The notes under the pieces were generated by a model, which saw nothing but the letters and a program-made list of their open reading frames with translations, ran no database searches and was not told the DNA's origin. From an uncultured Nitrososphaerota archaeon (lineage in GTDB: Archaea > Thermoproteota > Nitrososphaeria > Nitrososphaerales > CADDZS01), in the NCBI GenBank assembly GCA_963799845.1, contig CAWCYI010000004.1, forward strand, positions 1 to 64,000: 64,000 bases of DNA, given 5' to 3'. This document shows positions 15,796 to 42,134 of this stretch, one piece after another (the first letter of the stretch is position 1; the number at the start of each line of letters is the position of its first letter). The position numbers and the translations under genes were made by a program.

Positions 15796-16588
15796 TTTTC
15801 CTTTCTGCCTAAATGTTTTTGCTTGATCGCCAATGAAGAGCAGATTTTCCTTATCCTAAAACTAAAGTTCTGAGCACAAGGACAGATAAAAGGAAAATGA
15901 AAGCGGTTTGATTAGAAATTATCAATCTCTATAGATCCCACCATTCTGACATTCTGAATCAAAGCAGCCCTTCTCATTCAGTATTGAAATCGAAGACGAG
16001 TCTGTTCGAGAGCAATGTTTGCTGAGTAATAGAACCCCCTCCTTTGTTACATCCTTCTTAGTTCGTGGACTGCTCCGAGAGACTTGGCATGCTTGCGGCG
16101 TCTATCTTAATCTGTTTCCACAGATTTTCCTCTTGCCGTCGAAAAGATATGGCATCCAATACTAAACGGAGTAGATTGATTACCATCGTCATTGCGGGGC
16201 CTTCCACACAACTTGCGAGCCTGCGCCCGACAAGCACTATGGGATGGACTTTAGCAATATCCTCTCTCCACACATTGAAAGCACCTTCTTTGCGAGAACG
16301 AGTCTGCGGTATCTCCTCCCGTCACATGAAAGAATAATACTGCGCGGCCCTCATCTCGCAACCGAGAAATAGGCGCGTATCGATATTCTCGCTCGAAAAC
16401 GAAAAAAAATGAAGATTTCAGAACTGGTAAAGAGAGCTTCAACAATCCAAACCACCGCAGTGGAAGATACCACACTCGGTGGCTGAGGAAAAAAAGGAGG
16501 AGTTCCAATCACATCTCGACGAATTCAAAGAGACGACCCGACCCGCAGTTTGAGGAACTGCTCCAATAGTAAGTGACCATGAGTAACT

Positions 16589-17183
16589 TTGGGTGAGTTT
16601 GATTTACTGTCAGCTTTTTACGGTCTTGCGACAGCGGTCTATATTTTCGTAGTTGAAATAGACGTTGATTGGGCTATCAGAAAAATTTCGACTGAGGAAA
16701 AAGATCCTGGATCTAAATATGTTAGTCACGTTTCGAAGGAAAGGACCAAGCAGTTACAAGAGCTCGTTGCACTCCTGTACGGTGCGATTCCAATTTTCGT
16801 TTACGTGTTTATAGGTCAGCTCTTCGTCTACAGCGATCCCATATGGATTCCTTACGCTATGAGCTGTTCCGGCAACAATCCTTTCCCTGGTTTACGCATT
16901 CCAGCTACGAATCTTTAGATTTGATGATGACGGGAAAGCGGTAACGGGCATCCGGCCGGGCTTTGGAGAGTCGTATCCTTCCCTTATTGCATACTTATTC
17001 CTAACAACCTTCTCGTTCGCGCTACCCGTAATGGTAGGGTTGTGGGTATTCGATAACTTCACAATTCATAATCTCGATTTTCTGATTTTCGAAGTTGCAT
17101 TCCCTATGGTGACATGGTTTGCTCTTTTTAGTCTGTCAAGCTCAAGAATCTTTACGTACGATGAACCGGCCGCCAAGATTTAG
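16589..17183 (+). CDS. Membrane protein (frameshifted)
   Basis: Hydrophobic ORF 16589-16918 continues in another frame (LFLTTFSFALPVMVGLWVF...EPAAKI*) to TAG at 17183. Confidence 0.5.
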
Positions 17184-17206
17184 TAGGTGCTACCATCTTC
17201 TTGAAT

Positions 17207-17331
17207 TGCTGCCGCTGCATTTCTCTTTCATGTAAGGGGGATTGCTGATGATTTACCCACGTTTTTGCAGATCTCTGTCGAAAGTAATTATTCGAGATAC
17301 GCAAGACTTTTCGACTTCTTCATGGGTAAAT
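17207..17331 (+). promoter_or_regulatory. Structured site A: ATGTAAGGGGG core + inverted arms ATTTACCCA/TGGGTAAAT upstream of a Zn-finger gene
   Basis: Arms at 17251-17259 and 17323-17331; core aligns ungapped with 26450-26495. Confidence 0.65.
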
Positions 17332-17341
17332 AAAAATCGCA

Positions 17342-17517
17342 ATGACGTACGACTATCAGAAGTGCCCTCGCTGCGGCCGGAAAGCATGGCACGCTGACAT
17401 TGTAGAAAAGACCAGCAAGTACGCGCGATCTACCGCTATCAAAGATTCAGGCATCCAGTGGATGGTAGGACCAGGTGTAACAAGAATTGCTACGTGAGGA
17501 TCGAGGAAACAAGTTGA
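17342..17517 (+). CDS. Small CxxC...H...C Zn-finger protein, copy A (one-base frameshift; absent from ORF track)
   Basis: MTYDYQKCPRCGRKAWHADIVEKTSKY/AIYRYQRFRHPVDGRTRCNKNCYVRIEETS; aligns with 22083-22280 and 26573-26761. Confidence 0.75.
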
Positions 17518-17786
17518 TGAAAATGGCTTGCCGGGTAAAAGAAAAGTGGGTTCACAATAAAGGACTAGTCCGTTGCTTGCATTTACACAGTATGTAATCA
17601 CTGTTGGGCTGCTTTGTGTGAGATACACTATTGCGAGTGTTGCGCCTTGCCTGCGACGCGGGGCCCTGTTGATTAATGACGCGCCGATCGCGTTCAAGTA
17701 GTAGATTTTCGACGCCTTAGAAGCCGAGGCTTAAAAGAAGTCATTCTGTATGTGTAAAATAGAGAAAGTATCCAAGATCAGATATT

Positions 17787-20531
17787 TCATTCGATGACAG
17801 TGTCAGTTCTTCCCGATTCTACAATCACGGGTATCTCCGTCAGTTTTTGTACGATCTTGGAAAGCGCCAAGGTATCAGCTCTGTTCGCATCCGAAAGACG
17901 CTTTCTAGAGTCCTTGTCTTTTGGATCCGACAAAATCGAATTGCACAGGAAAAGCTTCTCGAACCCCCCAATCTCGTAAAAAGCAGTTTTCCAAGTTTCG
18001 TCTTCATAGTGTCCGAACAGTGAGTCATAGACGACTTTTAGCTGGGCGGTTTCTATTGGGGCGACGAGCTTGGTCTGGACTAAGTACAAGAGATTCAGGG
18101 TCGGCGAGGAATTCGCAAGATCCGAGCGAAGCAAAGATCTATCCGAACCACCCCAATGAACAAAAGTGTAGTCTTTCTTGTTACTGACATATTCGAGAGC
18201 TTTGTCGATCTCATCGAACCAAAACTGGTGGAATTCTCGGCTGGAGCCGTCCATGAACCCGTAAAGTACTCCCCTTCCCTCTGCATTGTATTCAGTATCA
18301 AACGCAATTATTCTGCATTGATCGGGAAGATCGAGCTCCTCGAGAAGGTATATGCGGTTCTCATCTGCGGTCAAGCGTTTGAACTTTACAAACGATTTTT
18401 GCAAATGAGAGCTTTGTAATCCAGAGGTTGGCTTGAGTCTTACAAAGACGCCGTCATTCAGATCTGCAAGAGAACATACTCCCAAATCGAACATCTTGAA
18501 AACGAGCGCCCATGGCAACCCCAGAGAGTACTTGAGATGCGCGAGATCGCCCAAGTGTTGGAAAATTCGGCTACCATGCCTTTCAAATGCTCCGACAAAA
18601 TATTCCGATTCATTTTTGCTGAGACGTGCCTCTTTTACAAGAGATTGCTGAGTGTCATCGCCATAATTCGTGAGTATATATTCCGCAAGAGAAGGCAATT
18701 TCTGAAATTCGTATTTCAGTGAACCATCGCGTTCTATGCTGATCCACGCCACGTTAGCTTGGCTGAAAGGATCGTCGTGTGAGCTTACATTCATCACGGT
18801 TGCATTATCTAGTCTCTCTGCCTTTCCACCGAGATTGTGAACGTGTCCGCAAAGTACCAGTTTGAGCCTTTTCTCGCTTTCAAGAAAATCCCTCAAAGAC
18901 TGACTGCCAATGGATTCCCGTCCGAATCGGATGGCTCTATCCAGCGATCCCTTCGGTGGAGTATGTGAGACGAGTATTAATTTCCCGCCGTGGGGCAATT
19001 TCTCTGAAACGGTCGATAGGTATGATTTCGCTTCGTCTTCGGGGTAGAGAGTTAGCCCTATGTCATTTACTCCATCTCTGAATATCGCCCCTTCCATTCC
19101 AAAGACGGAAAAGGATCCCAACCGAAGGTTTTGTAATTGCAAGTCGTAGACATGGTTTCCCCGAATCCAGGATCTCGCGCCAGAAAAGTCGTCGTTTCCA
19201 ATGACGACGCCGATACCATATTTTGATTGATTTGCTATTTCTTGAAAAATGTTGGATTCTGTTTCGCTTAGTGAGACGTGGAATCTACTGTAATCACCAT
19301 TTGTCTCAACCAGCCTTAGAGTGATTTCCATTTCGTCGAGATCATCGTCATTAGCGATCCGCCAGTAAGCAGAATCGCTCCAAAAGCCCTTATCCCCAAA
19401 GGACGAAAATTCGGCTATGACGGAATTGAGTTTTGGATCGATTAATGCGACCCTTTGCCTAGAATCATCCCAAACTGGAGGATCATATGAAACTCTAACT
19501 TTGAAATCAGGCTCAGCACAGGCTTTCAAGTTCGTTACGAAATACTCTGAATTTTCAGTATTGACTACTTGCTGTAACTTTCTCAGCAATCTAATCATCG
19601 AACTGAATCTATCCTTCGCTTCTGAAAGGTCGAATTTCTTAGGCAGTCTGAGCATGTATCCGTATGAAGGTGAGCTCGAATACCCATAGCTGCCCCGTAT
19701 CCATGCGACCGTAAGTTCTTCCGATTGGCTCATTGATTGTTGCAGTGCCTCAATCGGAGTTGGTCCGAATCTTGTAACATCATCGCCTGCGTACAGGATA
19801 AGATCGGGTTTGACCTTAGACTCCTTAATCGCTTTCAACAAAGGCCCGAATTTGTGAATCCTATAATCTGAAAACGCTAGAATATGAATGGGGAAACTAG
19901 GATTGCTGTCAAGATTTACTAAAAAGTCATTCTTCGGGAACTTTTGTTTTTGGATTATTTGTTCGCTGGAGATTTTCTTGTTGTACTCTTCCCGCTGAAA
20001 TTCTATCGCTTCTGGCGTAATGCTGCCAATGAATTCTTTGAGATAAGCCGCAAATGCAGGCAGAATTGAATATTTCCATTTTCCATTTTCTTTTTCAAGA
20101 ATGACTACGCCGTGTCCGACCAATGCTCTCTTGTTCCACCTAAGAAAATTAGAATCGAACGTCTCATGGTGAGATCCCACCAACTTGAGGTAGAGAGGAT
20201 TCCCTAGAATCTCGCCTTTTGTCTTAGGACCTTCGATAAGCATGCTCAGGAACAGGTTCACGTACCAGGGAAACGATTTCTCCGGACTTAGCAAAGGCAG
20301 CAATTCTTTTGCTGTTTTTTTCTCACAGAGTCGCGCGATAAGTTCGCGCTTGTTTCCTTTAGAAGAATAGCCCAAATCTTTACAGATTTGTCTCAGACGA
20401 ACTGAATTGACAGAGCTAGTGAGATAACGTTCTAGTTCCATCCCTTCATCAACTATTTGATTGTCAGAACTAATTTGCAACCTTCTTGGACTAAAACAAT
20501 ATCCATTTTTGATAATCCTGGATCTCGTCAT
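17787..20531 (-). CDS. Multidomain SAP-like + calcineurin-like metallophosphoesterase + RNase H-like (DEDD/RNase_H_2) protein
   Basis: LRQICKDLGYSSKGNKRELIARL (SAP-like); FSD, AGDD, GNDD, SHTPP, CGHVH; C-terminal AFDTEY...HWGGSD...NRAD. Confidence 0.75.
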   Translation of the reverse strand: MTRSRIIKNGYCFSPRRLQISSDNQIVDEGMELERYLTSSVNSVRLRQICKDLGYSSKGNKRELIARLCEKKTAKELLPLLSPEKSFPWYVNLFLSMLIEGPKTKGEILGNPLYLKLVGSHHETFDSNFLRWNKRALVGHGVVILEKENGKWKYSILPAFAAYLKEFIGSITPEAIEFQREEYNKKISSEQIIQKQKFPKNDFLVNLDSNPSFPIHILAFSDYRIHKFGPLLKAIKESKVKPDLILYAGDDVTRFGPTPIEALQQSMSQSEELTVAWIRGSYGYSSSPSYGYMLRLPKKFDLSEAKDRFSSMIRLLRKLQQVVNTENSEYFVTNLKACAEPDFKVRVSYDPPVWDDSRQRVALIDPKLNSVIAEFSSFGDKGFWSDSAYWRIANDDDLDEMEITLRLVETNGDYSRFHVSLSETESNIFQEIANQSKYGIGVVIGNDDFSGARSWIRGNHVYDLQLQNLRLGSFSVFGMEGAIFRDGVNDIGLTLYPEDEAKSYLSTVSEKLPHGGKLILVSHTPPKGSLDRAIRFGRESIGSQSLRDFLESEKRLKLVLCGHVHNLGGKAERLDNATVMNVSSHDDPFSQANVAWISIERDGSLKYEFQKLPSLAEYILTNYGDDTQQSLVKEARLSKNESEYFVGAFERHGSRIFQHLGDLAHLKYSLGLPWALVFKMFDLGVCSLADLNDGVFVRLKPTSGLQSSHLQKSFVKFKRLTADENRIYLLEELDLPDQCRIIAFDTEYNAEGRGVLYGFMDGSSREFHQFWFDEIDKALEYVSNKKDYTFVHWGGSDRSLLRSDLANSSPTLNLLYLVQTKLVAPIETAQLKVVYDSLFGHYEDETWKTAFYEIGGFEKLFLCNSILSDPKDKDSRKRLSDANRADTLALSKIVQKLTEIPVIVESGRTDTVIE

Positions 20532-20721
20532 TTACATAATTAAGCTGAGAGATTTTCCTTCCCGACACAGTGCCGGATAATACTGAGGACCCCAGATTAC
20601 AAAACAGAGAAGTACTGAATCTCGATGATCCACGCTTGATGGGAACCCTATTCGGTCCTTAATCCCAAAAATTCTTAATGTTATTCCAGCTCACATTCGA
20701 GGAATCTTAGAGGAAATCGAA

Positions 20722-21249
20722 GTGTCTGAAAAGCAAAAGAATGAAGATAAGAAACAAGGGATTGATGTATCAGACTACATTGACGTTGATGCTCAAGCTG
20801 CAACCCTCTCCTATCCCGTGCCTAACGAGATAGGTTTGTTGCCAAAAAATTTCGATTCGGCAAAGTCGAATAAAGAACTAGTTCAAACACAATCTGCGGC
20901 AACAGTTAGAAAGCTATGGAAAGCAGCCGGAATATCAGAGACGCCCGAACCGGAAAAGACTCGAATCGAGAGCCTCAATTTTATTGTATGGTTGGGTCCT
21001 ACAATAATTCTTGCGGCTGATTTTGTAAGAAATAACCCTGAGATTGTCGAGACCGCTTTAAAAATCATAATTGCCGTGGCAAAAGAGCAATTCAAAGGTA
21101 CAACAGGTGAAAATCGAGCAAAATTCGATGTTGTTGTTAAGGAAAGCAAAAACAAATACAAGAAAATTCATTACGATGGTCCTGTTGACGGAATGAAGGA
21201 TCTCCTTGACGCAGTGAAGGACCTTACTGATGGACATACAAACGGCTAA
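20722..21249 (+). CDS. Hypothetical protein, first gene of a two-gene module
   Basis: 175-aa ORF whose end overlaps the next start. Confidence 0.7.
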   Translation: MSEKQKNEDKKQGIDVSDYIDVDAQAATLSYPVPNEIGLLPKNFDSAKSNKELVQTQSAATVRKLWKAAGISETPEPEKTRIESLNFIVWLGPTIILAADFVRNNPEIVETALKIIIAVAKEQFKGTTGENRAKFDVVVKESKNKYKKIHYDGPVDGMKDLLDAVKDLTDGHTNG

Positions 21250-21931
21250 CTTCATACTTTCCCTCCGAGAATTATTCGAGAATTCTTCGCGAGTTTCCTA
21301 CATTACGAGGGATATGGGAATTTTGCAATCAATGGTTGCTAATCTTGAAGCTAAAAAGAACGATGCAAGCTCACTGAAGAAACTTAAGATCTCAAAAAAT
21401 GACGAGGATTCTTCTAATGCATTGCTTAGCATTGAAGAGCTAATCGATGCAATGGGGGCAGAGTTAAAAATGTGGATTTCTCTGAAAGAAGATCAGCCCG
21501 ATAGGGCTTGGTCCCATCTTGTCGCTGCACAATTATCTATAACAAGAGCTCTTAATGCCCATGAAGTAGCTGAACAGGCTAATGCGAAAATTTACCAAAT
21601 TAAGCTTGATCAAATAGAACGAATTATTTTCCCTCCACAATTGTTCCAAAGTATCGGGATGACTGCTGAATCTCAGATCTGTTCAATATGCGATCTCGAT
21701 TACGATGATTGTGCTCATGTAATTGGCAGACCGTACATGGGAAAATTCTGTTACGTTACGTTGATCGGTATAGAAGCTGAAGAGGTCTCTTTGGTGGATG
21801 ACCCTGCAGATAAGGACGCGAGAGTAATCTCTTACACGGAGAATGGGCAGTGGATTAATAGAATGACGCTAAGACCAGATGATTCTGTAGAAGGAACCAC
21901 TGCCGGAGACCAAAAGCAAACCGGTTCATAG
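21230..21931 (+). CDS. Protein with Zn-binding CSIC..C.H...C motif and prohead-protease-like EVSLVDDPAD motif
   Basis: SIG...CSICDLDYDDCAHVIGRPYMGKFC...EEVSLVDDPADKDA. Confidence 0.65.
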   Translation: MDIQTANFILSLRELFENSSRVSYITRDMGILQSMVANLEAKKNDASSLKKLKISKNDEDSSNALLSIEELIDAMGAELKMWISLKEDQPDRAWSHLVAAQLSITRALNAHEVAEQANAKIYQIKLDQIERIIFPPQLFQSIGMTAESQICSICDLDYDDCAHVIGRPYMGKFCYVTLIGIEAEEVSLVDDPADKDARVISYTENGQWINRMTLRPDDSVEGTTAGDQKQTGS

Positions 21932-22082
21932 AGCTGATCTTACCCACGCTCATGAGTACCAGGTACTCAATAGTCCGACCAGGTCGTAATCTCGTCTCAG
22001 AGCATATTTCTCAGTTATGCAAAAGGACATCAAAACAGGTTTGCACACAATATTTTTAGGATCTCGCAACTTTTTTCATAAG

Positions 22083-22280
22083 TTACATCGCCGCCGTTAA
22101 GAATTCATCCTCTTCGACAGGTACGTAACATCTCTTGACGTATTTCACACCGGTCTTTTGTCTTCTCCTCTTATGTCGATAAACTCTGTATCTGAAAGTT
22201 CCACTCTTGTTTCGTATGTTTTGAAAGATAGGATTAGGATTCCATGCTAGTTTATTGCATTTGGGACAAACAACGACCAA
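22083..22280 (-). CDS. Small Zn-finger protein, copy C
   Basis: CPKCNKLAW...FRYRVYRH...KRCYV. Confidence 0.75.
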   Translation of the reverse strand: MVVVCPKCNKLAWNPNPIFQNIRNKSGTFRYRVYRHKRRRQKTGVKYVKRCYVPVEEDEFLTAAM

Positions 22281-22300
22281 ATCAAACCGCTCCGAGTTTG

Positions 22301-22425
22301 TTATACCACTACAGAGATAAATTCATTCAGCCGCACGATTAGCCAATTCCGGCACAATAGCGGTATAATCGGTTTTGAGCTGGGTAATTTGGCCCTACTT
22401 TGCAGGATAGTCAATTATACCACTA
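22301..22425 (-). promoter_or_regulatory. Structured site C: three arms TTATACC(A/G)CTA upstream of a Zn-finger gene
   Basis: TTATACCACTA 22301-22311, TAGCGGTATAA 22358-22368, TTATACCACTA 22415-22425. Confidence 0.7.
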
Positions 22426-22470
22426 GCCTCTTAAATAACTAAATAAGAGACCATGGCTTGAAAATAGCAC

Positions 22471-22698
22471 ATGTCTTACCCAGATAGGGACGAAGTCTCT
22501 GAGGATTCGAGTGCTAATCGTGCCTATCGGAAGCGTCTAGAAATTTTGGAATACGAGCTACGAGATTTCTGGAAGGGAGATAGCATCGAAAAATATTCAA
22601 ATGATCTCAAAAATTTTGCTTCTTCGATTGCCTCTGACGAGTCAGGCTATACGCTGTCGATCATTTGGGGAAAGAAGCGCCCTTATTGGGTAAAGTGA
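22471..22698 (+). CDS. Hypothetical protein
   Basis: 75-aa ORF with ATG and upstream TTAAATA TATA-like box. Confidence 0.45.
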   Translation: MSYPDRDEVSEDSSANRAYRKRLEILEYELRDFWKGDSIEKYSNDLKNFASSIASDESGYTLSIIWGKKRPYWVK

Positions 22699-22743
22699 TC
22701 CCGTCAGGATACTTTTAGCGTCTGGAATTATTACGCCAGATAT

Positions 22744-23524
22744 TCAGGAATAGTTAACCCGTTTGAGCTTGAACGTCAGTTTCTTGCCCTCTAGATCAAG
22801 ACTTGACTTTTCCAGAACGAGCTCCTTGCCGTAAAGCTCTTCGAGTATTTTTGCTCCGGCGCCGTAGTAAAAGCGATTTTCCTTGTAGTTGCTGGCGTTG
22901 AGGATCGTCAACAGTCACCTCAAACCCATCTTCCACCTTTCTGAACTGAAATAATCCCCACCCGGTTGCCCTGAGCCCATCCAGGATATTCTCTACAAGA
23001 ACCTCGGTGGTGGCGTTAGGGAGAGCTAGTCGATACTGCTTCAATACCTCTCCACCATAGATTTTTCCTTCGTCGAACATTATTCCGGCTGCTCCGGAGC
23101 CAATCTCGTCCGTCAACGATTTTTCTATCCTGAGAAGCGCATCCACACGCATTAGAATTATCCTGTCCTTGTTCATTATCGCGTTCGGGAACAGGAACCT
23201 GTCAAAGAGCCTTCCCTTCATGTCAGCACATAGAACTTTCTGGACAAAAGACAAACTTCGTAGCTCCGAGACAATCGTATCCGTCGTGCAGTCTGCCTTC
23301 GACATATCACAAAATGCATTGGAAACAAAAAAACGTTCATCTGCCTGATCCGGCGAGGCAGATATAGATCTGATGTCTATGCCGTGCCTCGAGTACACCT
23401 CTGCAACCTTTATGAAAGTTCCAGGCTTATCGATTCCGTAAACCAAGAACTCGAAGATGTGTTCCCCCTTTGGTTTGGTTATCGACAGGTATCTTGTAAA
23501 ATACTGGATATCTGGTTTGAACAA
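22744..23524 (-). CDS. ACT-domain + V4R-like sensor protein (frameshift near 3' end)
   Basis: DKPGTFIKVAEVYSRHGIDI (ACT); AAGIMFDEGKIYG...GWG (V4R-like); alternative frame RFYYGAGAKILEELYG ends at TGA 22744. Confidence 0.7.
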
Positions 23525-23716
23525 CAGGAATTTCTTTCAAACAAGAGTCCGGCTGCTATTGGGTCATATAACTTAACGACGCTGTGTCAGTACGGAGAAT
23601 CCGCTCTCACTTCTTGAGTTGATTCACTTTTCCGGCAGGCTTCCCGAATTTAATTAAGAGCCCAATCATTCATTCCAAATTATCTCCCTCCAAAAATAAT
23701 TTTCCAGTCCAGGCTC

Positions 23717-24040
23717 TCAATCTAGAAACTTCGTGCGCGCTTCAGAAATCGCTTCTGAAAGAGTGATGCCATCTCTTGGATTCAGATTGAAATAGGTTTT
23801 GATTTCACGAATGACGAGTTTTTCAATGAATGAATAGCCCGCCTGCCCCAATATTTTTTGAAGATACTCCAGCAGTTCAAATGGTCGGGATTGAAGCTGA
23901 TTGGGCTGCAAGCCGTACTCCGAGACAACCTGATGGTACAACGCCAGTTTTGCAGTTTCTCCCAGCGTAGAAAGGGCCTTGTCAATGCACTGGAAAATGG
24001 TCCCATTGAAGCCTTTCTCGGACTGTGTGCCATTTCTCAA
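23717..24040 (-). CDS. Small helical protein (NitrOD5/DUF3227-like)
   Basis: IDKALSTLGE...RPFELLEYLQKILG..G..FIEKLV pattern. Confidence 0.6.
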   Translation of the reverse strand: MRNGTQSEKGFNGTIFQCIDKALSTLGETAKLALYHQVVSEYGLQPNQLQSRPFELLEYLQKILGQAGYSFIEKLVIREIKTYFNLNPRDGITLSEAISEARTKFLD

Positions 24041-24076
24041 GATTCTTCAATTCCAAAAAAACGTCTCCAGATCTTT

Positions 24077-24394
24077 TCAATCAGAATAGACTTTTTGCCT
24101 AGCTTTTCTCAAAACCTCAGAAAGTGTGCTGTCCTTTTCTTCGGGCTCTAATGCCAGATCGAACTCTGCAACTATTTCTCTCGAGATCAGTCTCTCCAGG
24201 AAATCGACCCCCGTGGGGCCGAAGAGCCTTCCCAGTACCTCTTCCAAAGCGCCGGGGTTTGTTGCGATCTCATCTTTATGGATTCCAAACTCTCGCTTTA
24301 GCATCGCATAGACGACGTTCATGACTTTGAGTCCCAGTGCCTGCTCAAGGGACTTGGAGATCTTCTCGCCGAATTCTTCATCCATTTTCTTCAA
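24077..24394 (-). CDS. Small helical protein (NitrOD5/DUF3227-like), tandem paralogue
   Basis: LEQALG...EI..NP..LEEVLGRLFG..G..FLERLI. Confidence 0.6.
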   Translation of the reverse strand: MKKMDEEFGEKISKSLEQALGLKVMNVVYAMLKREFGIHKDEIATNPGALEEVLGRLFGPTGVDFLERLISREIVAEFDLALEPEEKDSTLSEVLRKARQKVYSD

Positions 24395-24582
24395 TCAAAC
24401 ATCAATGACTCCATAGATGCTAAAGATCCCTCAATTTGTCTGAAGTTTGTCGAACGACGGGATCTGCAAAATTGTGTCAGATTACAGGCTTATAGGGACA
24501 ATGTGTCGAGTTGACAGATCTGAATTACTTTCGAACACAAACCAACACATAAATCTGAGTTAGATCATCGAAGTTATCGGGA

Positions 24583-25122
24583 ATGTCGTCAAGGAGCACT
24601 ACGAGGACGATTAGAATTGATGGCGACCTAGATCAAAAAATTGAGAAGATGGCCAAGACAGAGAGAACTTCGGTCAATTTTGTTGCAAACTCTGCGATTC
24701 GAGAATACGTCGAATGGTGCACGGTGGGACGAAAATTCGGCATAGCGTCATTTCCCCTTTTGCTCGTCGACAAACTGATCCAGAAATTCAATGAGAAAGA
24801 ATGTGAAGACCTAGGAAAATGGGCTGCACGAGAAACATTCATGCCATTCGCGGAATATCAGTTCGGAGAAATTACGTTCGAATCTTTCCTCGAAGTTTTC
24901 AGAAGATTTGGAAAATATTCGGGGCGATACAAATTTGATGACACCCAGAATGGTTCTCAGTGCATCATTTTTCTCAAGCACGGCTCGGGCCGGAGATGGT
25001 CTCACTACTACAACGGTCTCTTACAATCAATATTTGGGGAAATGAATACGGGGGCTATAAGGACGGAGTTGACAGACGATCTGCTCGTCGTAAAGATCGA
25101 TCAGGCGGTCGGAAAGAAGTGA
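24583..25122 (+). CDS. Ribbon-helix-helix regulator with C-terminal V4R/H-NOX-like domain
   Basis: TRTIRIDGDLDQKIEKMAKTERTSVNFVANSAIREY RHH; C-terminal H..G..WS.Y motif. Confidence 0.7.
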   Translation: MSSRSTTRTIRIDGDLDQKIEKMAKTERTSVNFVANSAIREYVEWCTVGRKFGIASFPLLLVDKLIQKFNEKECEDLGKWAARETFMPFAEYQFGEITFESFLEVFRRFGKYSGRYKFDDTQNGSQCIIFLKHGSGRRWSHYYNGLLQSIFGEMNTGAIRTELTDDLLVVKIDQAVGKK

Positions 25123-25685
25123 CCTCCATCTTTGCCAATCGGTGTCGCTCTGAGCAAGATGGAATCGTGAAATTCGATTAGTGGCGGTATATTTACCGGA
25201 TCGAGGGAGCATAGTGCGTTCTTCTCAGCCATGCACAAAAACGCGGGCCTCCGGGTTGTTGTATCGCTATCGATGAATTGCTCGATTGCTTTTCTATCAC
25301 CATACATGTCGTAGAATTCCACAGGGAATTGCCCTACTAATGAAACGTGGAGCCCCATCTTCTTACTCCTCTCAAGAATGTCTCTGTAAAATCTCTCGAA
25401 TGATGACAGACTCGGCGGTCTTCCAAATGCCTGGGCATTATCAACGAAAAGGAATGTTCCTTTTGTTAGGGCTTTCTTCATGGCCCGAAGATTTTTGCTA
25501 CTGTTCAACAGTCGAATGATGCGCTCTTTCTGTTGTAAGAACACAACGACGAAATCCTTTCTTTTTAGAGCGCACTCCACAAAAAGGATGGCAAGAGAAT
25601 CTCTTTCAATAAGGTCATCATAAACTACAAGAAAATGATCTCCGGGTCTCATAGACCTAACGAAGGTCGATCTTTCTTCTAGCAA
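25101..25685 (-). CDS. MEDS-domain sensory protein
   Basis: GDHFLVVYDD N-terminal motif; E....D, LC and FHD C-terminal motifs. Confidence 0.65.
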   Translation of the reverse strand: MLEERSTFVRSMRPGDHFLVVYDDLIERDSLAILFVECALKRKDFVVVFLQQKERIIRLLNSSKNLRAMKKALTKGTFLFVDNAQAFGRPPSLSSFERFYRDILERSKKMGLHVSLVGQFPVEFYDMYGDRKAIEQFIDSDTTTRRPAFLCMAEKNALCSLDPVNIPPLIEFHDSILLRATPIGKDGGHFFPTA

Positions 25686-25898
25686 TGATTGCTATCCATC
25701 AGCTGCCATTTCGGTGCTTTTTGAACTTATGGGAGTTACTTTCACCAGTAAGTCAATCTTCTACACACGATCGGGCTAAATTTGTGTGCAACGAAATGAG
25801 AATATTTCTCTAGGGCGCAGGGGGTTTCTTACGATTTTTCGGAGCCTTCTTAGTATTATCGGGATAAAGAAAAAAGTTCCTATTCCCAAAAAACACAG

Positions 25899-26291
25899 AT
25901 GTCCTGGATTGAATGTAAGAAACATCCCAGTGTGTACTACGAGTCGTCGGTCATCAAGACATGCCCAATTTGTCTCAATGGTTTTCTAAAAAATGCCCTG
26001 CTCAAATGGGCAATGGTAGACTTCGACAATCTACTCTACGAAAAATCGTTGCTGAAGTGGAGCAGACTCGCTCTTCATGCCATCAATCGAACAATAAGCG
26101 AAGAAGAAAAGATCCAATGTGATTCAGATGCCGAATCTGCGTATGTGAAAGCAACGGAGCTTCAGAAAACAATTACTGCGGAATACAAGGAACTGATAGG
26201 GTACCTTATTGAACAAGATATTTCCTTGATTTTTTCTGCCAAAGAGATGGATTCCCTGCGAAAAAGACTCGTTGAACTCTGCTCTAAATAA
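25899..26291 (+). CDS. Hypothetical protein with N-terminal CxxH...CxxC motif
   Basis: MSWIECKKH...TCPIC. Confidence 0.55.
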   Translation: MSWIECKKHPSVYYESSVIKTCPICLNGFLKNALLKWAMVDFDNLLYEKSLLKWSRLALHAINRTISEEEKIQCDSDAESAYVKATELQKTITAEYKELIGYLIEQDISLIFSAKEMDSLRKRLVELCSK

Positions 26292-26415
26292 ATCGGGATA
26301 GTTTTATTTTTCTGTGCACGCGTAGAATCTGACAAGAGCACAGGTGAAAAGACCATTCGTTACCTGTGCACTTGACAGGAGAGATCAATGAAATTGAAGA
26401 ACCATAATCACACAG

Positions 26416-26427
26416 AGCGCGCGCGCT
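26416..26427. repeat. Palindrome AGCGCGCGCGCT (copy 1 of 5)
   Basis: Exact copies also at 39441, 39509 and 42123; one-mismatch copy at 39790. Confidence 0.85.
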
Positions 26428-26440
26428 TGTACCGTGAATA

Positions 26441-26573
26441 TGTGTGTAACTGTGCGGAGAGATTTGTAAGGCATGTTAGGGGGGTTATTCGCTACTTACA
26501 CACAAGATTTTTGGAAAAGGATGAGATTGAATAATCTGAACATTCGCATCATGGAGCCGTGAGTTGTGTGTAA
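26441..26573 (+). promoter_or_regulatory. Structured site B: arms TGTGTGTAA / TTACACACAA / TTGTGTGTAA around an ATGTTAGGGGG core
   Basis: Arms at 26441-26449, 26496-26505 and 26564-26573; the last abuts the Zn-finger ATG. Confidence 0.7.
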
Positions 26574-26761
26574 TGTCAATATTGTGTGCTAAGAAGGGCT
26601 GCGGCAGATTGGCCATGTCCAAAGTCAGAGTGACTTTGCAAGGCAAGAACGGAGAAACTTGGGAATACGACAGGTTCGTTCACTACAACCGAGTAGACAA
26701 GAGAAGGAAGGGGCGGCAGGCTCCTAGAACGTACCATTATGTCAGAGTGAAGGCTTCCTAG
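26573..26761 (+). CDS. Small Zn-finger protein, copy B
   Basis: MSILCAKKGCGRLA...WEYDRFVH...YHYVRV. Confidence 0.7.
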   Translation: MSILCAKKGCGRLAMSKVRVTLQGKNGETWEYDRFVHYNRVDKRRKGRQAPRTYHYVRVKAS

Positions 26762-27414
26762 TCGCGATCTAATTCTAATGCTCGGATTACTTTTGGTGAC
26801 CGCAAACAGAAAGTTGCAGATTCTTTGGCTCATAAAGCAGCTCGATGATCCTCCGCCTCGTTGAGTCGTTCAATGTCTTGTGGAGAGATGACCAGTCTAC
26901 GTCGAAATCGCACCCATGAAACTTTACTCCCCGATTTCAAGACTCTTGATAACGACGATTATCACTCGGTTATCAAGAACGGGCAAAAAGGTTGAGCGAG
27001 TTTGAGCTCAGTTCCCATGACTAACTTCTAATTGCGGATCCTGATTCTCTGCAAAATTTGGCCGTGCGGCTCCGTACGAATCTTGAGGGCAAATTTCCCT
27101 CAAGCTTCCCCGTAGCGCAGCAGCCGAGGTATGCAGCCCCGCGGTAGTTCAGAGAAGGAGCATCGTGGCTCGAACTAGCTCGATAAGAGATCAGACCGTC
27201 ATGAAATATCTCTTCTTTGTAAGATAGTTTAATGCACCCATGGTGAAAATCATGTCAGGGTAGTTTTTCTATTTAGCGCAATCCCCGATTTCACGAATTG
27301 CAATTAATATCATCTTTGCACGTTTGCCCTGAAGAACTGTACTGGACTATAGATTGGCCAGTAAAACGGAATAGGTCCCTTCAACGAGTTCCGCGTACAG
27401 CCGGTAGAAGAGCT

Positions 27415-27774
27415 TCACTTGGAAGCTCTTGGTGAAGCTGATGTCAATTCACCAAAATTGGCCATCAGATAATTCACAATTTTTGGAACAGTTGCTTGCT
27501 TCTCGGAGTGGCTCATAGAAACACGGACTGCCCACCACGACAGCACTTTAGCGCCTCCATAATATTCATAGATTCGATAGACTCTTAGGTATTTTTCGCG
27601 TCTTGAAGTTTGGGAGATTGCTTCCAAAAGTCGATTGTAATTCTCGATTATGCGTTTGTTTGAGGCTTCAGGAAATTTTATGATTCTCGAATTTCGCTCG
27701 TCGTAAAAATATCCATAGGTTTTCGTGTGATCAAGGCCGAGATACCGAAGCCTATTTGCAAAATCAAATTTCAA
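27415..27774 (-). CDS. Hypothetical protein (possibly N-terminally truncated)
   Basis: 119-aa ORF, no motif recognised. Confidence 0.45.
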   Translation of the reverse strand: MKFDFANRLRYLGLDHTKTYGYFYDERNSRIIKFPEASNKRIIENYNRLLEAISQTSRREKYLRVYRIYEYYGGAKVLSWWAVRVSMSHSEKQATVPKIVNYLMANFGELTSASPRASK

Positions 27775-29031: not shown

Positions 29032-30135
29032 TCACCTACTCTTCAAGCCGTAGAGCCGTTTTCTAGTCTTTCGATCGTAAATTGAATTAAGATATCCTTG
29101 TTTCAACATCTGTCGCAGTTTTCGTGTAATTGCCGCGCGCTTCAGTCGCGTGTAATCTTGAAGCTTTGGGTCTGATGCCGAAGATGGCCCATTTGTCTCA
29201 AGGTATCGGACTATTTCGCGCGAGGCGGGATCGAGTTTCATGACATTTTCTGAAGGGGTAACGAGCCGAGCCAAGTTTTCGTCTGAGATCTGGTGATCTA
29301 ATTGTAGCATATCGATCTTGCCCGATTCGGATTTAAGATATATTTCCCTTAACAGACTTAGAATCCTGCTTGGATTCCCTTTACTTGATTCATAAATCAA
29401 GCCGAGAGATTTTTCTGACATCTTTAGCCCCGGTAGCCGCGATTGAATCAGTTCTCTTGTCTTTTCTTTGTCAAACGTCTGGATCCTCACGACCTGGTCA
29501 AGAAAAGCTTCAGACAACCTAGTCTTATACAAGTCCTGTTCTTCTACAGTGCCTACGAATACAAATGGCGCCTTGGCCCTCCAAAAAGTCTCCCTTAATG
29601 AAACCAAGACATCACGGAATAATTCAGGTAATTTATCGGTCTCGTCGACCAAGAAAACGGGCTTCCTTGCCGACTTTTGAAACTCGCTAACCAGATCTAC
29701 AAAGGCATTAAGCGCTTCATACTCACGCTGGATAAGAACTGAGCTTGAATCTTTTACAAAATCCGGCTTCGAGGCAGAGTTTCTTGTTGACGAATTACCC
29801 AGAAGGCGACTCATGATGGTTCCCGCCTTTGATTTTGAAAGATCATCGAGTTTTCCAGAGATCGCAGAAATTAGGATAACAATGAAATCTAACGGAGTTT
29901 TTGTTTGAAGCGGAAGGTCCACAGGGATCAAGACAAATTCCTTTCGACTTCGAAAGAGATATTGTATCTTGTTCAGTAGAGTAGTCTTTCCTGACCCGTA
30001 TTCCCCCAGTATCAAGACATTCAGGTTTCCTTCTATGGCTCTTGTTATCGATTCGACTTCGACTTCTCGATCGATGAAAAGTTTCATATCAAATGACGTC
30101 GGTAGGAGAGGTGCTAAGGAGACGCGAACCGACAT
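29032..30135 (-). CDS. Archaeal AAA+/STAND-like ATPase with C-terminal wHTH (first of pair)
   Basis: FIDREVE, GEYGSGKT, FLVDETD, SKGNP, C-terminal LKRAAITRKLRQMLKQGYL wHTH. Confidence 0.85.
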   Translation of the reverse strand: MSVRVSLAPLLPTSFDMKLFIDREVEVESITRAIEGNLNVLILGEYGSGKTTLLNKIQYLFRSRKEFVLIPVDLPLQTKTPLDFIVILISAISGKLDDLSKSKAGTIMSRLLGNSSTRNSASKPDFVKDSSSVLIQREYEALNAFVDLVSEFQKSARKPVFLVDETDKLPELFRDVLVSLRETFWRAKAPFVFVGTVEEQDLYKTRLSEAFLDQVVRIQTFDKEKTRELIQSRLPGLKMSEKSLGLIYESSKGNPSRILSLLREIYLKSESGKIDMLQLDHQISDENLARLVTPSENVMKLDPASREIVRYLETNGPSSASDPKLQDYTRLKRAAITRKLRQMLKQGYLNSIYDRKTRKRLYGLKSR

Positions 30136-30187
30136 GTGTTACCTTAGTACACATGTATCTGTTAATTAAGTTATGCTGGTAACACAT
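30134..30187. promoter_or_regulatory. Inverted repeat ATGTGTTACC...GGTAACACAT bracketing a TTAATTAA TATA-like box of the ATPase operon
   Basis: 10-bp perfect arms at 30134-30143 and 30178-30187. Confidence 0.6.
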
Positions 30188-30248
30188 AGGCTGTCCCTAT
30201 CGTGGGTTCAAGTTCACTCACTAGAACGGGCTTGGCTTAGCCTGAATC

Positions 30249-31149
30249 CTAGAAGTTCCTTGTAAATTCACTTGAGTCTAGGCTGCGGATCACGAGGAAG
30301 GAAGAGAAGAGAATCATATCAGAGATTCCGGCGACTATGAAAGGAGCAAACCAACCATGTGTCGATGAGAGCAATACCAGGACAATGAAAGTCATGAAGG
30401 CGCATGAAGATAAGGCAAATACGAACGTCAATCTCATTTCATGTGCCATCGTCCTTCCTGCTACCTTGAGGAATCGAAGGCATTCAATAGCTGATCTGAA
30501 ACGGAGAATATTGAGAAAATTCTCAACTGCTCCGTTCGTGTCGAATTGCCTCAAAGTCATTTGACCGTCGAGCAGCGAAAAGGCGGTCCTAAACAAGAAG
30601 TAGGAAATCACCAGTACGAACATTCCGCCGAAAAGTAGTCCCAGCGTGGCAGAAGGAATGACGTAATTTCCGGATTCTAATGGAGTAAAAAGGAAAATCT
30701 GTGTGATGAGGAAGACACCAATTGAAAATATATAACCCGACAGCCCATTCCCGGCAAGGGCCATCTCTCGTTCCCTCGCATATCCTAAAACAAAATAGCT
30801 GACGGAGCTTTCCAACGACGCACCAGCCCAGAGGAATAGCCGGAATTGCTACAGCGTACGCTACAACCTCACCACCGCTTTTGGTTCCAATAACCAGTAA
30901 AGCGATGCCTACAAAGAAATTTACAACAAAAGCATTAGCAGACATTATTCGATAGAGATTGACCTTTGGATCCGCTGAACTATGAAACCAGCGCAGCCCC
31001 ATTGGCAAGCCAACTGTAGAGACCAGCATCGAGACAACCAAGACAAGTGTATTGAGGCCAGGATGCCAAAAGAAGAAGCCTAGTCCAATCGCCGTTGCAA
31101 TCGCCAAGCCGGCATCGAATGGCTTGTCGAAGTTCTCGTTCTCGCTCAT
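30249..31149 (-). CDS. Multi-pass membrane protein (frameshifted, two ORFs)
   Basis: Overlapping hydrophobic ORFs 30589-31149 and 30249-30815. Confidence 0.6.
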
Positions 31150-31307
31150 GGAAAAGCCCTCAGTTGAGGGTTGGCTTACCCGCTATTTAAAATCAGGTTA
31201 TATATAGAATAGGTATTTGCCGTCGATTTTGCGACGTTATTTTACTAATGGTCATGGTGATATGTCGTGCTTCGTGGACATTTTGTTTGTTTGAACCGGT
31301 TATCCCT

Positions 31308-33896: not shown

Positions 33897-33900
33897 TGAA

Positions 33901-41108: not shown

Positions 41109-42122
41109 AATGCTAGGGAGCGCTCGGATGGATCATTCGCGATTGAATGACGAGAACTAATATCTTTGCTTATGCTTTGATCATCCAATCTGCTCTCTCG
41201 AAGGCAAAGAATACCGGCGTATTGTAGTCTGGGACATTGGTTACAGTACCTGTGCCATTCTTGTCGTGATACTGAAAATTGTTGATTATGACGATTTTGT
41301 AAGCGACTTTACTTTCCTCAGGATCCGGATAATACCATTTCCGATGACAAAAAACGCGGTCGACTCATTCAAGTACGCTAGTGCCTTAGTATCGGGTCTC
41401 TCTAACACGAATTGGCAATCCCAAAGGCTTGACCGCGTGGGATTTGAACCTAAAGTCGAATGCTCGGCGACCGCACTGTGTCAAATGAATTCGTGGGTTG
41501 GGGCGCACTCTAACCAATTCCACAACTTCTTGGCAGAGTTTCAACTCACTAAAGGCATGGCAATCTAATTCATAGAGAGTTACGTCACCCTCAAAGGCCG
41601 CAATCTCTTTGTCGACGAAAGAAGGCCCTGGCTTTGCCAGTATTGCTCCATTGGACGACTGTCTGACATCTCAGGGAGAACTCGCATCCCCCTGACATTT
41701 TTTGAGAAAGGGTGCAAATACGGTACCTATCGACCGATTCGGTACCTTTCAAATGCGCCATGGCCCACAAAATCGGTTCAGTACCTTATCCTTTCTACAA
41801 ATAAGACTGAAAGAAAAGGAAGTGGATTTTGTGGGTGGAAAGATCTCAAGAGAGCCATCGCCGAAAACCAATCGGTGTGCCTTGGGCTAAGGGAAATCAA
41901 TCTGCGAAAGCAGGGATCGCTGTTGATTGTGTCGCGGGACGACCTCTCATCACCTGCCATTTTTTTCAAAGGGGGCCAAAAAAATCATGGAAACCTGGAA
42001 CATATATCCACTGTGCCGAAAATACCTCACCTAGAGCAGTGCTTTCGGCGATCTGCCAGCTGCCAGACGCACGATCCTGGCAGATTCGATTTGAGTGCCT
42101 TTACATAGCGATTCGAGTCTCA

Positions 42123-42134
42123 AGCGCGCGCGCT
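42123..42134. repeat. Palindrome AGCGCGCGCGCT (copy 5)
   Basis: Exact match. Confidence 0.85.

Follow-up and report, generated by a model that had tools for sequence, protein, structure and literature searches.

A family of small zinc-ribbon proteins with putative cognate site arrays upstream of their own genes in Nitrososphaerota

Three small zinc-finger genes, A, B and C, are found in a 64,000-nucleotide stretch (the window) of the genome of an uncultured Nitrososphaerota archaeon. Each is preceded by inverted copies of a short word, the arm, and the arm word differs from gene to gene. What do these arms do, and what is the function of the core that lies between them? A first-pass annotation proposed that each zinc finger binds its own arms and that it either autoregulates or assists a recombination or nicking reaction at the core. 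Here we describe the protein family and its upstream modules in this and other genomes, and the competing readings of the architecture are weighed in light of that comparison.

The protein family and its copies in the window

By sequence, A, B and C are members of a small unannotated Nitrososphaerota family of basic zinc ribbons of about 60 aa with the pattern CxxC...H...C/H. A profile search of 1.84 billion representative proteins recovered 58 representative clusters at E <= 1e-3. In other families of the order, 3 of 28 genomes match the family profile. C5, C8 and H36 are invariant in 24 aligned sequences, and the fourth ligand is mostly C, with H in B, P0013 and P0015. The four-ligand, two-knuckle pattern is present and metal binding is predicted.

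The family has no match in NCBIfam or PHROG, and the C protein of the window has none in Pfam. PF22415 (PSV ORF131-like) matches 12 of the 24 members weakly (best E 2e-4), and nothing is found at E <= 0.1 between it and the window proteins C, B and the N-terminal part of A. The family profile matches PDB 2x5c with E 1.4e-3. An AF2 model has four strands at moderate confidence (pLDDT 72). Foldseek returned no match to the model at E <= 0.001, and the best VIA-align score (Z 3.1) is to small beta-barrels, with no clear fold match. Relatives were not found in a viral contig collection by scans sensitive to close relatives only.

The features of the window and one related locus are as follows.

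17186-17208, + strand: decayed outer site of module A, GGTGCTACCATCTTCTTGAATTG, from alignment to the canonical A-type palindromic site GGTGTTGTCCAyGATTGGACAACG
17207-17250, + strand: core of module A, AT-rich box CATTTCTC, then CATGTAAGGGGGATT (nhmmer E 1.4e-11)
17251-17259, + strand: inner arm of A, ATTTACCCA, then CGTTTTTGCAGATC
17284-17293, + strand: TATA-like box between the arms of A, GTAATTATTC then GAGA, a putative promoter element
17323-17331, + strand: proximal arm of A, TGGGTAAAT, 10 nt upstream of the ATG
17342-17517, + strand: gene A, A-type zinc-ribbon gene with a frameshift near 17420-17428
21940-21948, + strand: lone A-type arm word, TTACCCACG
21995-22058, + strand: relic module S_win (core searches, E 4.3e-7 and E 7.9e-8)
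22083-22280, - strand: gene C, open frame, intact zinc-ribbon protein of 65 aa
22301-22425, - strand: module C, three arms TTATACCRCTA
22301-22311 and 22415-22425: arms of C, TTATACCACTA
22358-22369: inverted arm of C, TAGCGGTATAAT
25781-25848, + strand: relic module S2, weak core match (E 2.4)
26441-26449, + strand: outer arm of B, TGTGTGTAA
26450-26495, + strand: core of module B, starting GATTTGTAAGGCATGTTAGGGGGGTT (nhmmer E 4.3e-12)
26496-26505, + strand: inner arm of B, TTACACACAA, then GATTTTTGG
26564-26573, + strand: proximal arm of B, TTGTGTGTAA, overlapping the ATG at 26573
26573-26761, + strand: gene B, open frame, intact B-type zinc-ribbon protein of 62 aa
C6:1618637-1618714: third relic core, same genome, outside the window

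All three genes were initially taken to encode paralogous proteins. This holds for B and C, which are open frames, but A is frameshifted. The span of gene A (176 nt) is not a multiple of 3; its N-terminal part lies in the frame of 17342 and its C-terminal part in the frame of 17398-17514, and the two halves match the A-type profile with hhalign E values of 1.8e-10 and 2.4e-13. The same sequence occurs in contigs from two runs of one study (short reads). Because of the frameshift, gene A is probably a pseudogene.

Arms, cores and their covariation with the proteins

The inverted repeats upstream of A, B and C are present at the positions first described, and in B and C a third arm lies 46 bp beyond the middle arm. 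Of 20,000 random 150-nt windows of the same genome, 1.2% contain a perfect inverted repeat of at least 9 nt whose halves are 40-80 nt apart. In a whole-genome search the A and B arm words form close pairs only at A and B, and the three genomic copies of TTATACCRCTA are all at C; arms in this genome are clustered only at their own genes. The A-type word reported to recur near 21940 does so, but it is weak by itself because the genome contains 18 copies. Module A was thought to lack an outer arm, which was not borne out, as the canonical A-type site is found there in decayed form. The flanks of module A align with canonical A-type modules, and the CGTTTTTGCAGATC that follows its inner arm is homologous to them, although the arm word differs.

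The cores of A and B had been described as alike at about half of their positions, and the ungapped match is 24 of 46. Among 18,274 sampled 46-mers the mean is 11.5 (sd 2.9), and 24 or more matches are reached by 0.016%. The A/B core is not recognisable in the 46-bp spacer of C, where 13 of 46 positions match. Strong matches to the core number four in 4.6 Mb, and all of them are in the modules described here.

Homologues in other genomes and metagenomes have an arm, a promoter-like core, an inverted arm and, in most cases, a third arm close to the start codon. The core consists of an AT-rich box, CATGTNAGGGGGAT and then about 10 bp. The B-type loci of three other genomes have all four parts, from the outer arm through the core and the inverted arm to the proximal arm, and their arm word is TTGTGTG(T/C)AA. 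Canonical A-type loci carry four to six copies of TGTTGTCC plus the same core, and their arms are short palindromes (TGTTGTCC-N5-GGACAA). Further subtypes have the arm words ACGGACAA, CATGGGCA, TGACACAA, GTGTTAAA, ATGGCTAA, TGCCCAAAC/TTTAGGCA and TTATACCRCTA. The arm word varies with the protein subtype, and at least eight words are found across the subtypes.

Within 342 nt upstream, an exact 8-mer occurs at least three times in 23 of 55 loci, compared to 1.8% of 5000 random windows, although the loci are mutually related and the counts therefore overstate independence. The other 32 loci fall short of three exact copies, and no arms were found at the C2-type paralogue and its orthologue. The spacing between outer and inner arms, start to start, measures 53-57 bp for the B, C, A3 and E types, and for canonical A it is 63-64 bp. 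The proximal arm is at most about 20 nt from the start codon in the B, C3, A2, A3, L051 and L068 types. Across 1434 genes of this genome, TATA-like hexamers are most frequent near -30. Two E-type loci carry the core in inverted orientation with respect to the gene.

The covariation of arm and protein among homologues, with the arm-core-arm-gene layout kept, makes the first half of the original proposal, that each zinc finger binds its own arms and autoregulates, probable by comparison. We regard it as reasonably likely that the family consists of sequence-specific DNA-binding proteins that repress their own promoters. Each subtype would recognise its own 8-11-bp word. Two inverted arms would flank a conserved promoter-like core, and the third would sit at or just before the start codon. 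With the arms occupied, the core would be clamped and the start of transcription covered, which would result in autorepression. We infer the DNA binding, the repression, the role of the core as promoter and the transcript starts. Architectures of this general kind, in which an autoregulator has several operators, are known. However, simple autoregulation does not account for a core that is conserved across subtypes and restricted to the modules.

The arms might instead act in RNA, either as a leader switch at the start codon or as a small RNA ending at the T-run. The inner arm would pair alternately with the outer or the proximal arm, which would hide or free the start codon. The arms are indeed complementary, and the complementarity is kept while the sequence varies between subtypes; C has one mismatch, which forms a G-U pair in the sense strand, the proximal arm of B overlaps the start codon, and a T-run follows the inner arm. 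Folds of the outer-inner arm hairpin have z-scores of -2.1 to -3.3, but inner-to-proximal folds are near shuffled sequences in four of six cases (z -0.4 to -1.5) and a common internal structure is absent. Such hairpins are impossible in subtypes that have four to six copies or whose repeats are all direct (L074 group, C3 type), and the canonical A-type arms are short palindromes, as expected for the binding sites of a dimer. The T-run aligns with a decayed second half-site. Rfam 15 gave no match at E <= 1 in positions 16500-27500 of the window and six homologous loci. A role in RNA is therefore considered improbable.

Gene-less modules and the genomic island

Three modules of this genome are without a gene, two in the window and one elsewhere. 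S_win contains ATATTTCTC (22004-22012), a decayed G-run and the inner arm TTTGCACACAA (22040-22050) followed by a T-run. No zinc-finger gene follows it, and the relic faces the 3' end of C. S2 contains the outer arm TTTGTGTGCAA (25781-25791), ATATTTCTC (25802-25810), AGGGGG (25819-25824) and a truncated inner arm, then a T-run; it is upstream of an unrelated 130-aa gene (25899-26291). Gene-less modules that precede unrelated genes, as well as a B-type module that adjoins a tRNA-3'-like fragment, are about as compatible with a mobile or recombining element as with autoregulation.

The window modules are in a strain-specific island that was not found at the DNA level in 12 related genomes. The island contains the intact units B and C, the probably dead gene A and the two relics, along with an extra frameshifted MCM, restriction-modification and other defence-type genes, and a tRNA adjoins it. 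Five modules or relics fall in a 10-kb part of the island, compared to one in the remaining genome. The units appear to arrive and decay in this island.

The second half of the original proposal treated the core as a recombination or nicking site, the zinc finger as an arm-bound accessory or directionality factor, and the genes in between as exchangeable cassettes. The clustering in the island is consistent with this, and so is the presence of B-type units in four unrelated contexts, with homology confined to the interval from the outer arm to the stop codon. In L028/L081 a 24-nt fragment resembling a tRNA 3' end, with the complete tRNA absent, stands immediately beside the outer arm, and two relics lose homology just past the inner arm. 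However, none of the 33 window ORFs scanned with Pfam has an integrase, recombinase or transposase domain. Repeats of the adjacent tRNA-Arg and its flanks are at the chance level (28 ten-mer matches versus 18 expected, 0 at modules), and no att repeats were found. There is no conserved element downstream of the genes, and the orientations of the modules are mixed. The six direct repeats of the L074 group are unfit for a crossover core. The commonest subtype has a conserved chromosomal neighbourhood, and in several genomes the canonical A-type unit has a fixed place, with a TackOD1-domain gene on one side and phosphoglycerate kinase on the other. Junctions did not appear in contigs of four runs, although contigs can miss rare forms. 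Exchangeable cassettes are thus unsupported, the units do not look like a recombination machine, and we consider this reading very unlikely.

An integron-like cassette array was rejected, as the modules do not share one strand (C is on -, the others, A, S_win, S2 and B, on +), each module is upstream of its gene and no integrase was found among the ORFs scanned.

Arrays of three to six spaced repeats resemble iterons or centromeres, and the arm arrays with their core could be maintenance sites of integrated plasmids or viruses, with the zinc ribbon as a site-specific adaptor. The sites would then serve as a replication origin or in partition. The extra MCM, the defence-type genes, the adjoining tRNA and the absence of the island from related genomes fit such an element. 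Chromosome-segregation roles are also predicted for Cren7/Sul7-related zinc-chelating proteins by Kaur et al. 2018 (PMC5906684). The zinc-finger genes, however, stand alone, with no Rep, ParA or primase gene beside any unit, and the nearest MCM, itself frameshifted, is at a distance of 8 kb. Members of the canonical A and C3 types are conserved genes of the chromosome, and the viral contigs, as far as close relatives are concerned, contain none. This makes a maintenance function unlikely.

A further idea, also unlikely, is that a nucleoprotein complex assembles on the arm-core-arm unit as a portable site, and that such units make up a class of small mobile modules of archaea that has so far gone unrecognised. 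The core would be acted on by a factor common to the modules, from the host or the element, for nicking, recombination or replication start, and the fast-changing zinc ribbon and arms would provide a private address for each module. Such a class would account for the accumulation of units and relics in one island and for the tRNA fragment next to one unit.

Relationship to known systems

The architecture was initially considered undescribed, and this stands within the literature searched and four family libraries. The autoregulation that we favour has a parallel in Ss-LrpB, an archaeal autoregulator with several spaced operators in its own control region. Both have several regularly spaced sites, putatively cognate in our family, upstream of their own gene, with one at the promoter or, here, the putative promoter, and a similar mode of cooperative binding or wrapping may be expected here by analogy. 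The folds are unrelated, as Ss-LrpB has a helix-turn-helix and a RAM domain rather than a 60-aa zinc ribbon. The sites also differ, as those of our family are single words that alternate in orientation and surround a conserved core common to the subtypes. Brz, a small CPxCG-type zinc-finger regulator of haloarchaea, is likewise a basic zinc-finger protein of about 60 aa involved in archaeal gene regulation, but we know of no cognate-site arrays at its own gene.

In the lambda-type intasome, integrase arm sites together with Xis/IHF sites surround a core. The modules resemble it in the short arm words that flank a conserved core in both orientations and in the small basic protein. They differ in that a recombinase, an att duplication and junctions were not found and in that canonical members are chromosomal and syntenic.

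To our knowledge, no sequence-specific sites have been described for ORF131 or Cren7. The PSV ORF131-like (PF22415; 2x5c) and Cren7-related zinc ribbons are small, beta-rich, zinc-chelating proteins of TACK archaea and their viruses, and our family is predicted to be of this kind as well. The sequence likeness is weak (best E 2e-4 to PF22415 and E 1.4e-3 to 2x5c), and PF22415/type-2 zinc ribbons have two CPxCG knuckles as opposed to CxxC...H...C/H. Type-2 and Cren7-related zinc ribbons are discussed by Kaur et al. 2018 (PMC5906684). A 'Zn-ribbon domain containing protein', arCOG08677, is listed 12 times as one of the top arCOGs for thaumarchaeal integrated elements in Table 1 of Krupovic et al. 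2019 (PMC6563490). It resembles our family by description, being a zinc-ribbon protein that is frequent in the integrated elements of this phylum. MCM-bearing cryptic integrated elements are reported in the same paper (PMC6563490), and the window too carries an MCM.

For annotation, the A copy is a probable pseudogene and the cargo around the modules belongs to a strain-specific island. Few transcription regulators of Nitrososphaerota are known to us, and none from uncultured soil or peat lineages. The family described here is compact, unannotated and putatively DNA-binding. Its subtypes are naturally paired with at least eight site words, and this natural variation therefore provides a system, already at hand, for testing how DNA is read by a zinc ribbon of 60 aa. 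Should the core turn out to do more than serve as a promoter, the family would point to mobile or maintenance elements of a new kind in archaea.

Zinc-ribbon genes and their arms in the window

The window covers the opening 64 kb of contig C4 in a genome of 4.6 Mb and 9 contigs (86.7% complete), called the source genome here. It holds three paralogous genes for small basic zinc-ribbon proteins (A, B and C). Short repeated words, or arms, occur upstream of each gene. An outer and an inverted inner arm flank a promoter-like core, and a proximal arm may lie near the start codon; the arm-core-arm unit is referred to as a module.

Zinc-ribbon genes and arms in the window
17342-17517 (+), gene A, 176 nt in two frames instead of one
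17251-17259, arm of A, ATTTACCCA
17323-17331, arm of A, TGGGTAAAT
26573-26761 (+), gene B, open frame of 62 aa
26441-26449, arm of B, TGTGTGTAA
26496-26505, arm of B, TTACACACAA
26564-26573, third arm of B, TTGTGTGTAA, its final A being the A of the ATG
22083-22280 (-), gene C, open frame of 65 aa
22301-22311 and 22415-22425, arms of C, TTATACCACTA
22358-22369, inverted arm of C, TAGCGGTATAAT

The first-pass annotation described three genes. B and C are open frames as described, but the protein of about 60 aa ascribed to A is interrupted by a frameshift near 17420-17428. Reading from 17342 gives the N-terminal part (MTYDYQKCPRCGRKAW...); the C-terminal part (...IYRYQRFRHPVDGRTRCNKNCYVRIEETS) is encoded in a second frame, that of 17398-17514. 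Both halves align to a profile built from A-type relatives (N-terminal half, hhalign E 1.8e-10, columns 19-40; C-terminal half, E 2.4e-13, columns 43-72), and A is therefore an A-type gene broken at this point. The frameshift is probably real rather than an assembly slip, because contigs of two public DNA runs, both from a single study that may include the source sample, span the break with zero differences (X1 record 1, 17032-17628; X3 record 17, 17376-17588). The relationship of B to C rests on profiles, with a BLASTP E of only 0.029, and a word-index homology search with C gave no match. A homodimer prediction for B (alignment A5) scored 0.01, which speaks neither for nor against a dimer.

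All arms were recovered where they had been reported. Perfect inverted repeats of at least 9 nt with a spacer of 40-80 nt occur in 1.2% of 20,000 random 150-nt windows of the source genome. The word TTATACCRCTA of C has three genome copies, every one at C; TTACACACAA has four, two of them at B; ATTTACCCA has 27, the sole close pair being at A. The A-type arm word TTACCCACG, said to recur after the cargo at 21940, is indeed present there, but the genome holds 18 copies of it.

The reported likeness of the A and B cores at about half of their positions holds: 24 of 46 positions match over the 46 nt before the inner arm in the original register, a value attained by 0.016% of 18,274 sampled 46-mers (mean 11.5, sd 2.9). 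The spacer of C has the same length of 46 bp, yet it matches the B core at only 13 of 46 positions. On the minus strand, 16300-16345 (TTCTTTCATGTGACGGGAGGAGAT) weakly resembles a core, and 24461-24483 has an arm-like TGACACAA and then TTTTGCAGATC; both are below thresholds and may be decayed modules, but they are not claimed as such.

The protein family and its arm words

The family of A, B and C is small. Among 1.84 billion representative proteins, a profile of five paralogues matched 58 clusters (E <= 1e-3), 5 of them with E <= 1e-10. In an alignment of 24 members C5, C8 and H36 are invariant. The fourth ligand varies: some members, B among them, have H where the others have C. Zero family matches were found in NCBIfam and PHROGs. 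Pfam PF22415 (PSV ORF131-like domain) weakly matches 12 of the 24 members (best E 2e-4), and the family profile matches PDB 2x5c at E 1.4e-3. Kaur et al. (2018, PMC5906684) name the ORF131 zinc ribbon as one for which structural searches return SH3-like barrels, and describe Cren7/Sul7 as derived from such zinc ribbons. The AlphaFold model predicted from the 24-sequence alignment contains four strands (pLDDT 72). Fold searches (Foldseek against PDB; VIA-align wide) were without clear match, and the top ESM Atlas score, 0.78, was too low for use.

Subtypes of the family
A type, RYRHPxDGRTKRN
B type, FVHYN...YCYVR
C/C2 type, a further distinguishable subtype
C3 type, strongly conserved with a basic tail, in every one of the 12 further genomes of the taxonomic family
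D type, three near-identical copies in the source genome
E type, PDGRRRTPRKCTV

A-type relatives in named records come from MAGs of Nitrososphaerales, Conexivisphaerales and 'Nitrososphaerota/Thaumarchaeota archaeon'. The profile also matched 3 of 28 genomes from other families of the order. Scans of viral contigs, able to detect close relatives only, found none.

Collection of homologues with a search for upstream repeats, as the first-pass annotation had proposed, recovered the arm-core-arm layout elsewhere, with an arm word that varies with subtype. B-type genes in three other genomes (G004, G011 and G001) show the full layout of outer arm, core, inverted inner arm and proximal arm. G004 has the arm word TTGTGTGTA(A), while G011 and G001 share TTGTGTGCAA; the core reads ATATTTCTC...ATG(T/A)AAGGGGGATT, diverged in G011. 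Canonical A-type genes (G008, G001, five metagenome contigs and named MAGs) have 4-6 copies of TGTTGTCC, the outermost forming the palindrome TGTTGTCC-N5-GGACAA. The core GATATTTTTTCTnGCATGTyAGGGGGATGCTTTTGT follows this palindromic copy, and the next arm follows the core. Taken between the outer and the inner arm, 13 cores give a near-gapless alignment. A TT-purine...CC theme is common to many arm words. Claims that use the loci L020, L029 and L034 lean partly on the unpublished genome G001, and other genomes bear them too.

Arm words at other homologue loci
L054, L058, L059 and L061, ACGGACAA
L051, CATGGGCA
L074 group, TGACACAA in five or six direct copies
L066, GTGTTAAA
L068, ATGGCTAA
E type (L069, L073, L106), TGCCCAAAC/TTTAGGCA
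C3 type, TTTAGGCA and inverted TGCCCTAAA abutting the ATG

At least three exact copies of an 8-mer occur in the 342 nt upstream of 23 of 55 mutually related loci, 16 near-duplicate or truncated loci having been left out beforehand, versus 1.8% of 5000 random source-genome windows. The other 32 loci fall below this mark, and the C2 type has zero arms upstream. A 9-mer search allowing one mismatch separated poorly, with at least four copies in 19 of 55 loci versus 22 of 400 random windows.

Spacing of arms, start to start
Outer to inner, B of the window, L025, L028, L029 and L054, 56 bp
Outer to inner, L058, 54 bp
Outer to inner, C, 57 bp
Outer to inner, L069, 53 bp
Outer to inner, canonical A, 63-64 bp
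Inner to proximal, all measured loci, 57-119 bp

On this spacing, the conserved unit is a core enclosed by two inverted arms about 55 bp apart. The core of module A in the window, and the stretch past its inner arm, align with the canonical A type (CGTTTTTGCAGATC versus ACATTTTTGCAGATCG of L041). The arm word of module A is ATTTACCCA where the canonical type has TGTTGTCCA, and its outer site is decayed. The window protein A diverges most between CxxC and Y.Y..RH. With its frame kept, its word new and its protein changed, module A looks like a case of co-evolution of a binding protein and its site.

An alternative reading of the layout, pairing of the arms in RNA, is unlikely: some subtypes have only direct repeats, or 4-6 copies, and the canonical A sites are palindromic. 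Fold energies are near those of shuffled sequences for four of six inner-to-proximal stretches, and zero Rfam matches were found.

Relic modules, genomic context and possible mobility

The source genome was scanned for cores with an HMM of the 13 cores and a sequence-only covariance model, each of which gave four strong matches. Two of these are modules without a zinc-ribbon gene, or relics.

Core matches in the source genome
Core of A, E 1.4e-11 (HMM) and 1.1e-11 (covariance model)
Core of B, E 4.3e-12 (HMM) and 5.6e-13 (covariance model)
21995-22058, relic, E 4.3e-7 (HMM) and 7.9e-8 (covariance model)
C6:1618637-1618714, relic, E 9.9e-14 (HMM) and 8.6e-14 (covariance model)
25781-25848, truncated fifth module, HMM E only 2.4; outer arm TTTGTGTGCAA, ATATTTCTC, AGGGGG and a shortened inner arm

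The relic at 21995-22058 consists of ATATTTCTC, a decayed G-run, the inner arm TTTGCACACAA at 22040-22050 and a T-run, and continues into the 3' end of C on the opposite strand. The relic at 25781-25848 precedes an unrelated 130-aa gene (25899-26291) and the C6 relic a membrane-protein-like ORF. Such gene-less relics before other genes fit a promoter-operator that has outlived its gene, and the B-like words at 22040 and 25781 could put the relic promoters under a B-type protein. Modules and relics number five within a 10-kb part of the window versus one in the other 4.5 Mb. A strict core pattern was found in only two places in 13 family genomes, and the covariance model (R1) recovered only its own building sequences and three weak matches.

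The window looks like a strain-specific island; its 14-30 kb part has almost nothing at the DNA level in 12 related genomes. The MCM gene at 7867-9952 is frameshifted into overlapping frames (7867-9315 and 9212-9952), and an intact, better-scoring MCM lies at C1:55256-55918. Krupovic et al. (2019, PMC6563490) describe an extra MCM as typical of integrated elements. The island also holds a HEPN/Toprim-like gene and an HD-domain gene. No integrase domain was found among the 33 window ORFs scanned.

Other features of the window and related copies
169-260 (-), tRNA-Arg (TCG), 92 nt, probably with an intron, beside the island where the contig begins
17787-20531 (-), 914-aa protein with an N-terminal SAP domain, a calcineurin-like metallophosphoesterase and, by eye, a C-terminal DTEY motif resembling RNase H-fold exonucleases
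22796-23524 (-), ACT-domain gene; region 22764-23503 has an 86% identical copy at C6:1583827-1584576
23717-24040 and 24077-24394 (-), adjacent paralogous ORFs of 105-107 aa sharing '...FIEKLVIREI...', without Pfam family, one with a 66% DNA match in G004
29032-30135, STAND/AAA ATPase with a MarR-like tail
31308-33896, type III restriction subunit with endonuclease domain
33901-35847, N6/N4 DNA methylase
659-810 and 52691-52879, short repeat (about 130 bp; dozens of copies at 80-94% identity on C1, C3, C4, C6 and C7)
41882-43615, C6:1625969-1627765 and C7:5919-7751, 1.7-kb segment (91-97% identity) with a D-type zinc-ribbon ORF (43342-43698, -) from the CPRCG motif on, a 251-aa ORF (42579-43334, -) and a 141-aa ORF without Pfam match

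The genes at 29032-35847 are a defence-type block. The 130-bp repeat looks like a miniature transposable-element family, and the triplicated 1.7-kb segment may be a mobile unit. Distances from the C6 copy of the ACT-domain gene are about 35 kb to the C6 relic and about 43 kb to a D-type copy, so C6 may hold a second island of related content. The tRNA-Arg and its flanks have no repeats beyond chance and no att-like copy.

The first-pass annotation had raised recombination at the cores, with the cargo as exchangeable cassettes. Only four observations speak for it: the clustering of modules in the island, relics that break just past the inner arm, a tRNA-like fragment beside one B-type module, and the varied contexts of the B type, whose units occupy four different neighbourhoods. 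The DNA likeness of the window to G004 is limited to the module and its gene, and nothing is conserved downstream of the zinc-ribbon genes. In G011 a 24-nt stretch like a tRNA T-arm/acceptor 3' end lies immediately next to a B-type module's outer arm (L081, G011:C3 3530-3553); ARAGORN found no whole tRNA there, and this 96%-complete genome has no second copy. Against cassette exchange, recombinase and att repeats are missing and module orientations are mixed. The proposed search for junctions at the cores revealed no joints in the contigs of four DNA runs (one study), where covered; the loose contig ends at 22910-22914, 26666 and 26761 trace to related sequences with different surroundings. 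These four are the public runs that match the stretch, none of RNA among them. The canonical A type stands in chromosomal synteny, between a TackOD1-domain gene and phosphoglycerate kinase in several genomes and contigs, and is therefore a stable chromosomal gene. C3-type genes adjoin a DEAD-box helicase gene. For the island copies an iteron or partition role is unlikely but conceivable; no Rep or ParA gene is adjacent.

Other candidates were rejected. Small ORFs downstream of the core (e.g. MLLS...) and a frame through the core (HVRG) have unconserved lengths and frames, with a stop before the motif in L020. A C/D box suggested by TGATGA in A is missing in the other modules. Origin recognition boxes combine a dyad with a G-string, and the core was ruled out as such a box on spacing.

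A proposed model of autoregulation

The geometry of the modules suggests that the zinc ribbons would be sequence-specific DNA binders acting on their own promoters, with two inverted sites bracketing the promoter-like core. An AT-rich box lies about 20 nt before GGGGAT, a position that would place the transcript start near the inner arm. Many subtypes have a third site at the start codon. Because TATA-like hexamers peak near -30 from start codons in the source genome, many of its mRNAs are probably short-leadered or leaderless. The box that lies between the inner and proximal arms (B, GAATAATC; A, GTAATTATTC; C, AATTTATC) would set a start at the proximal arm or shortly before it. When occupied, the sites would block initiation. 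The A, B and E subtypes, with their differing arm words, share a conserved core that is confined to modules; two E-type loci have it in the opposite orientation to the gene. It may be the target of a common factor, the basal transcription machinery being the simplest candidate.

The first-pass annotation knew of no described system with this architecture, and the literature searched likewise held no description of the zinc-ribbon family or of the arm-core-arm layout. Table 1 of Krupovic et al. (2019, PMC6563490) gives a 'Zn-ribbon domain containing protein' (arCOG08677) as one of the most frequent genes in integrated elements of thaumarchaea; it may belong to the family of A, B and C. As a small autoregulator with several operators, the predicted system would be of a known kind. 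Its family is unannotated, subtypes and arm words pair in rich variety, and the core is specific to the modules.
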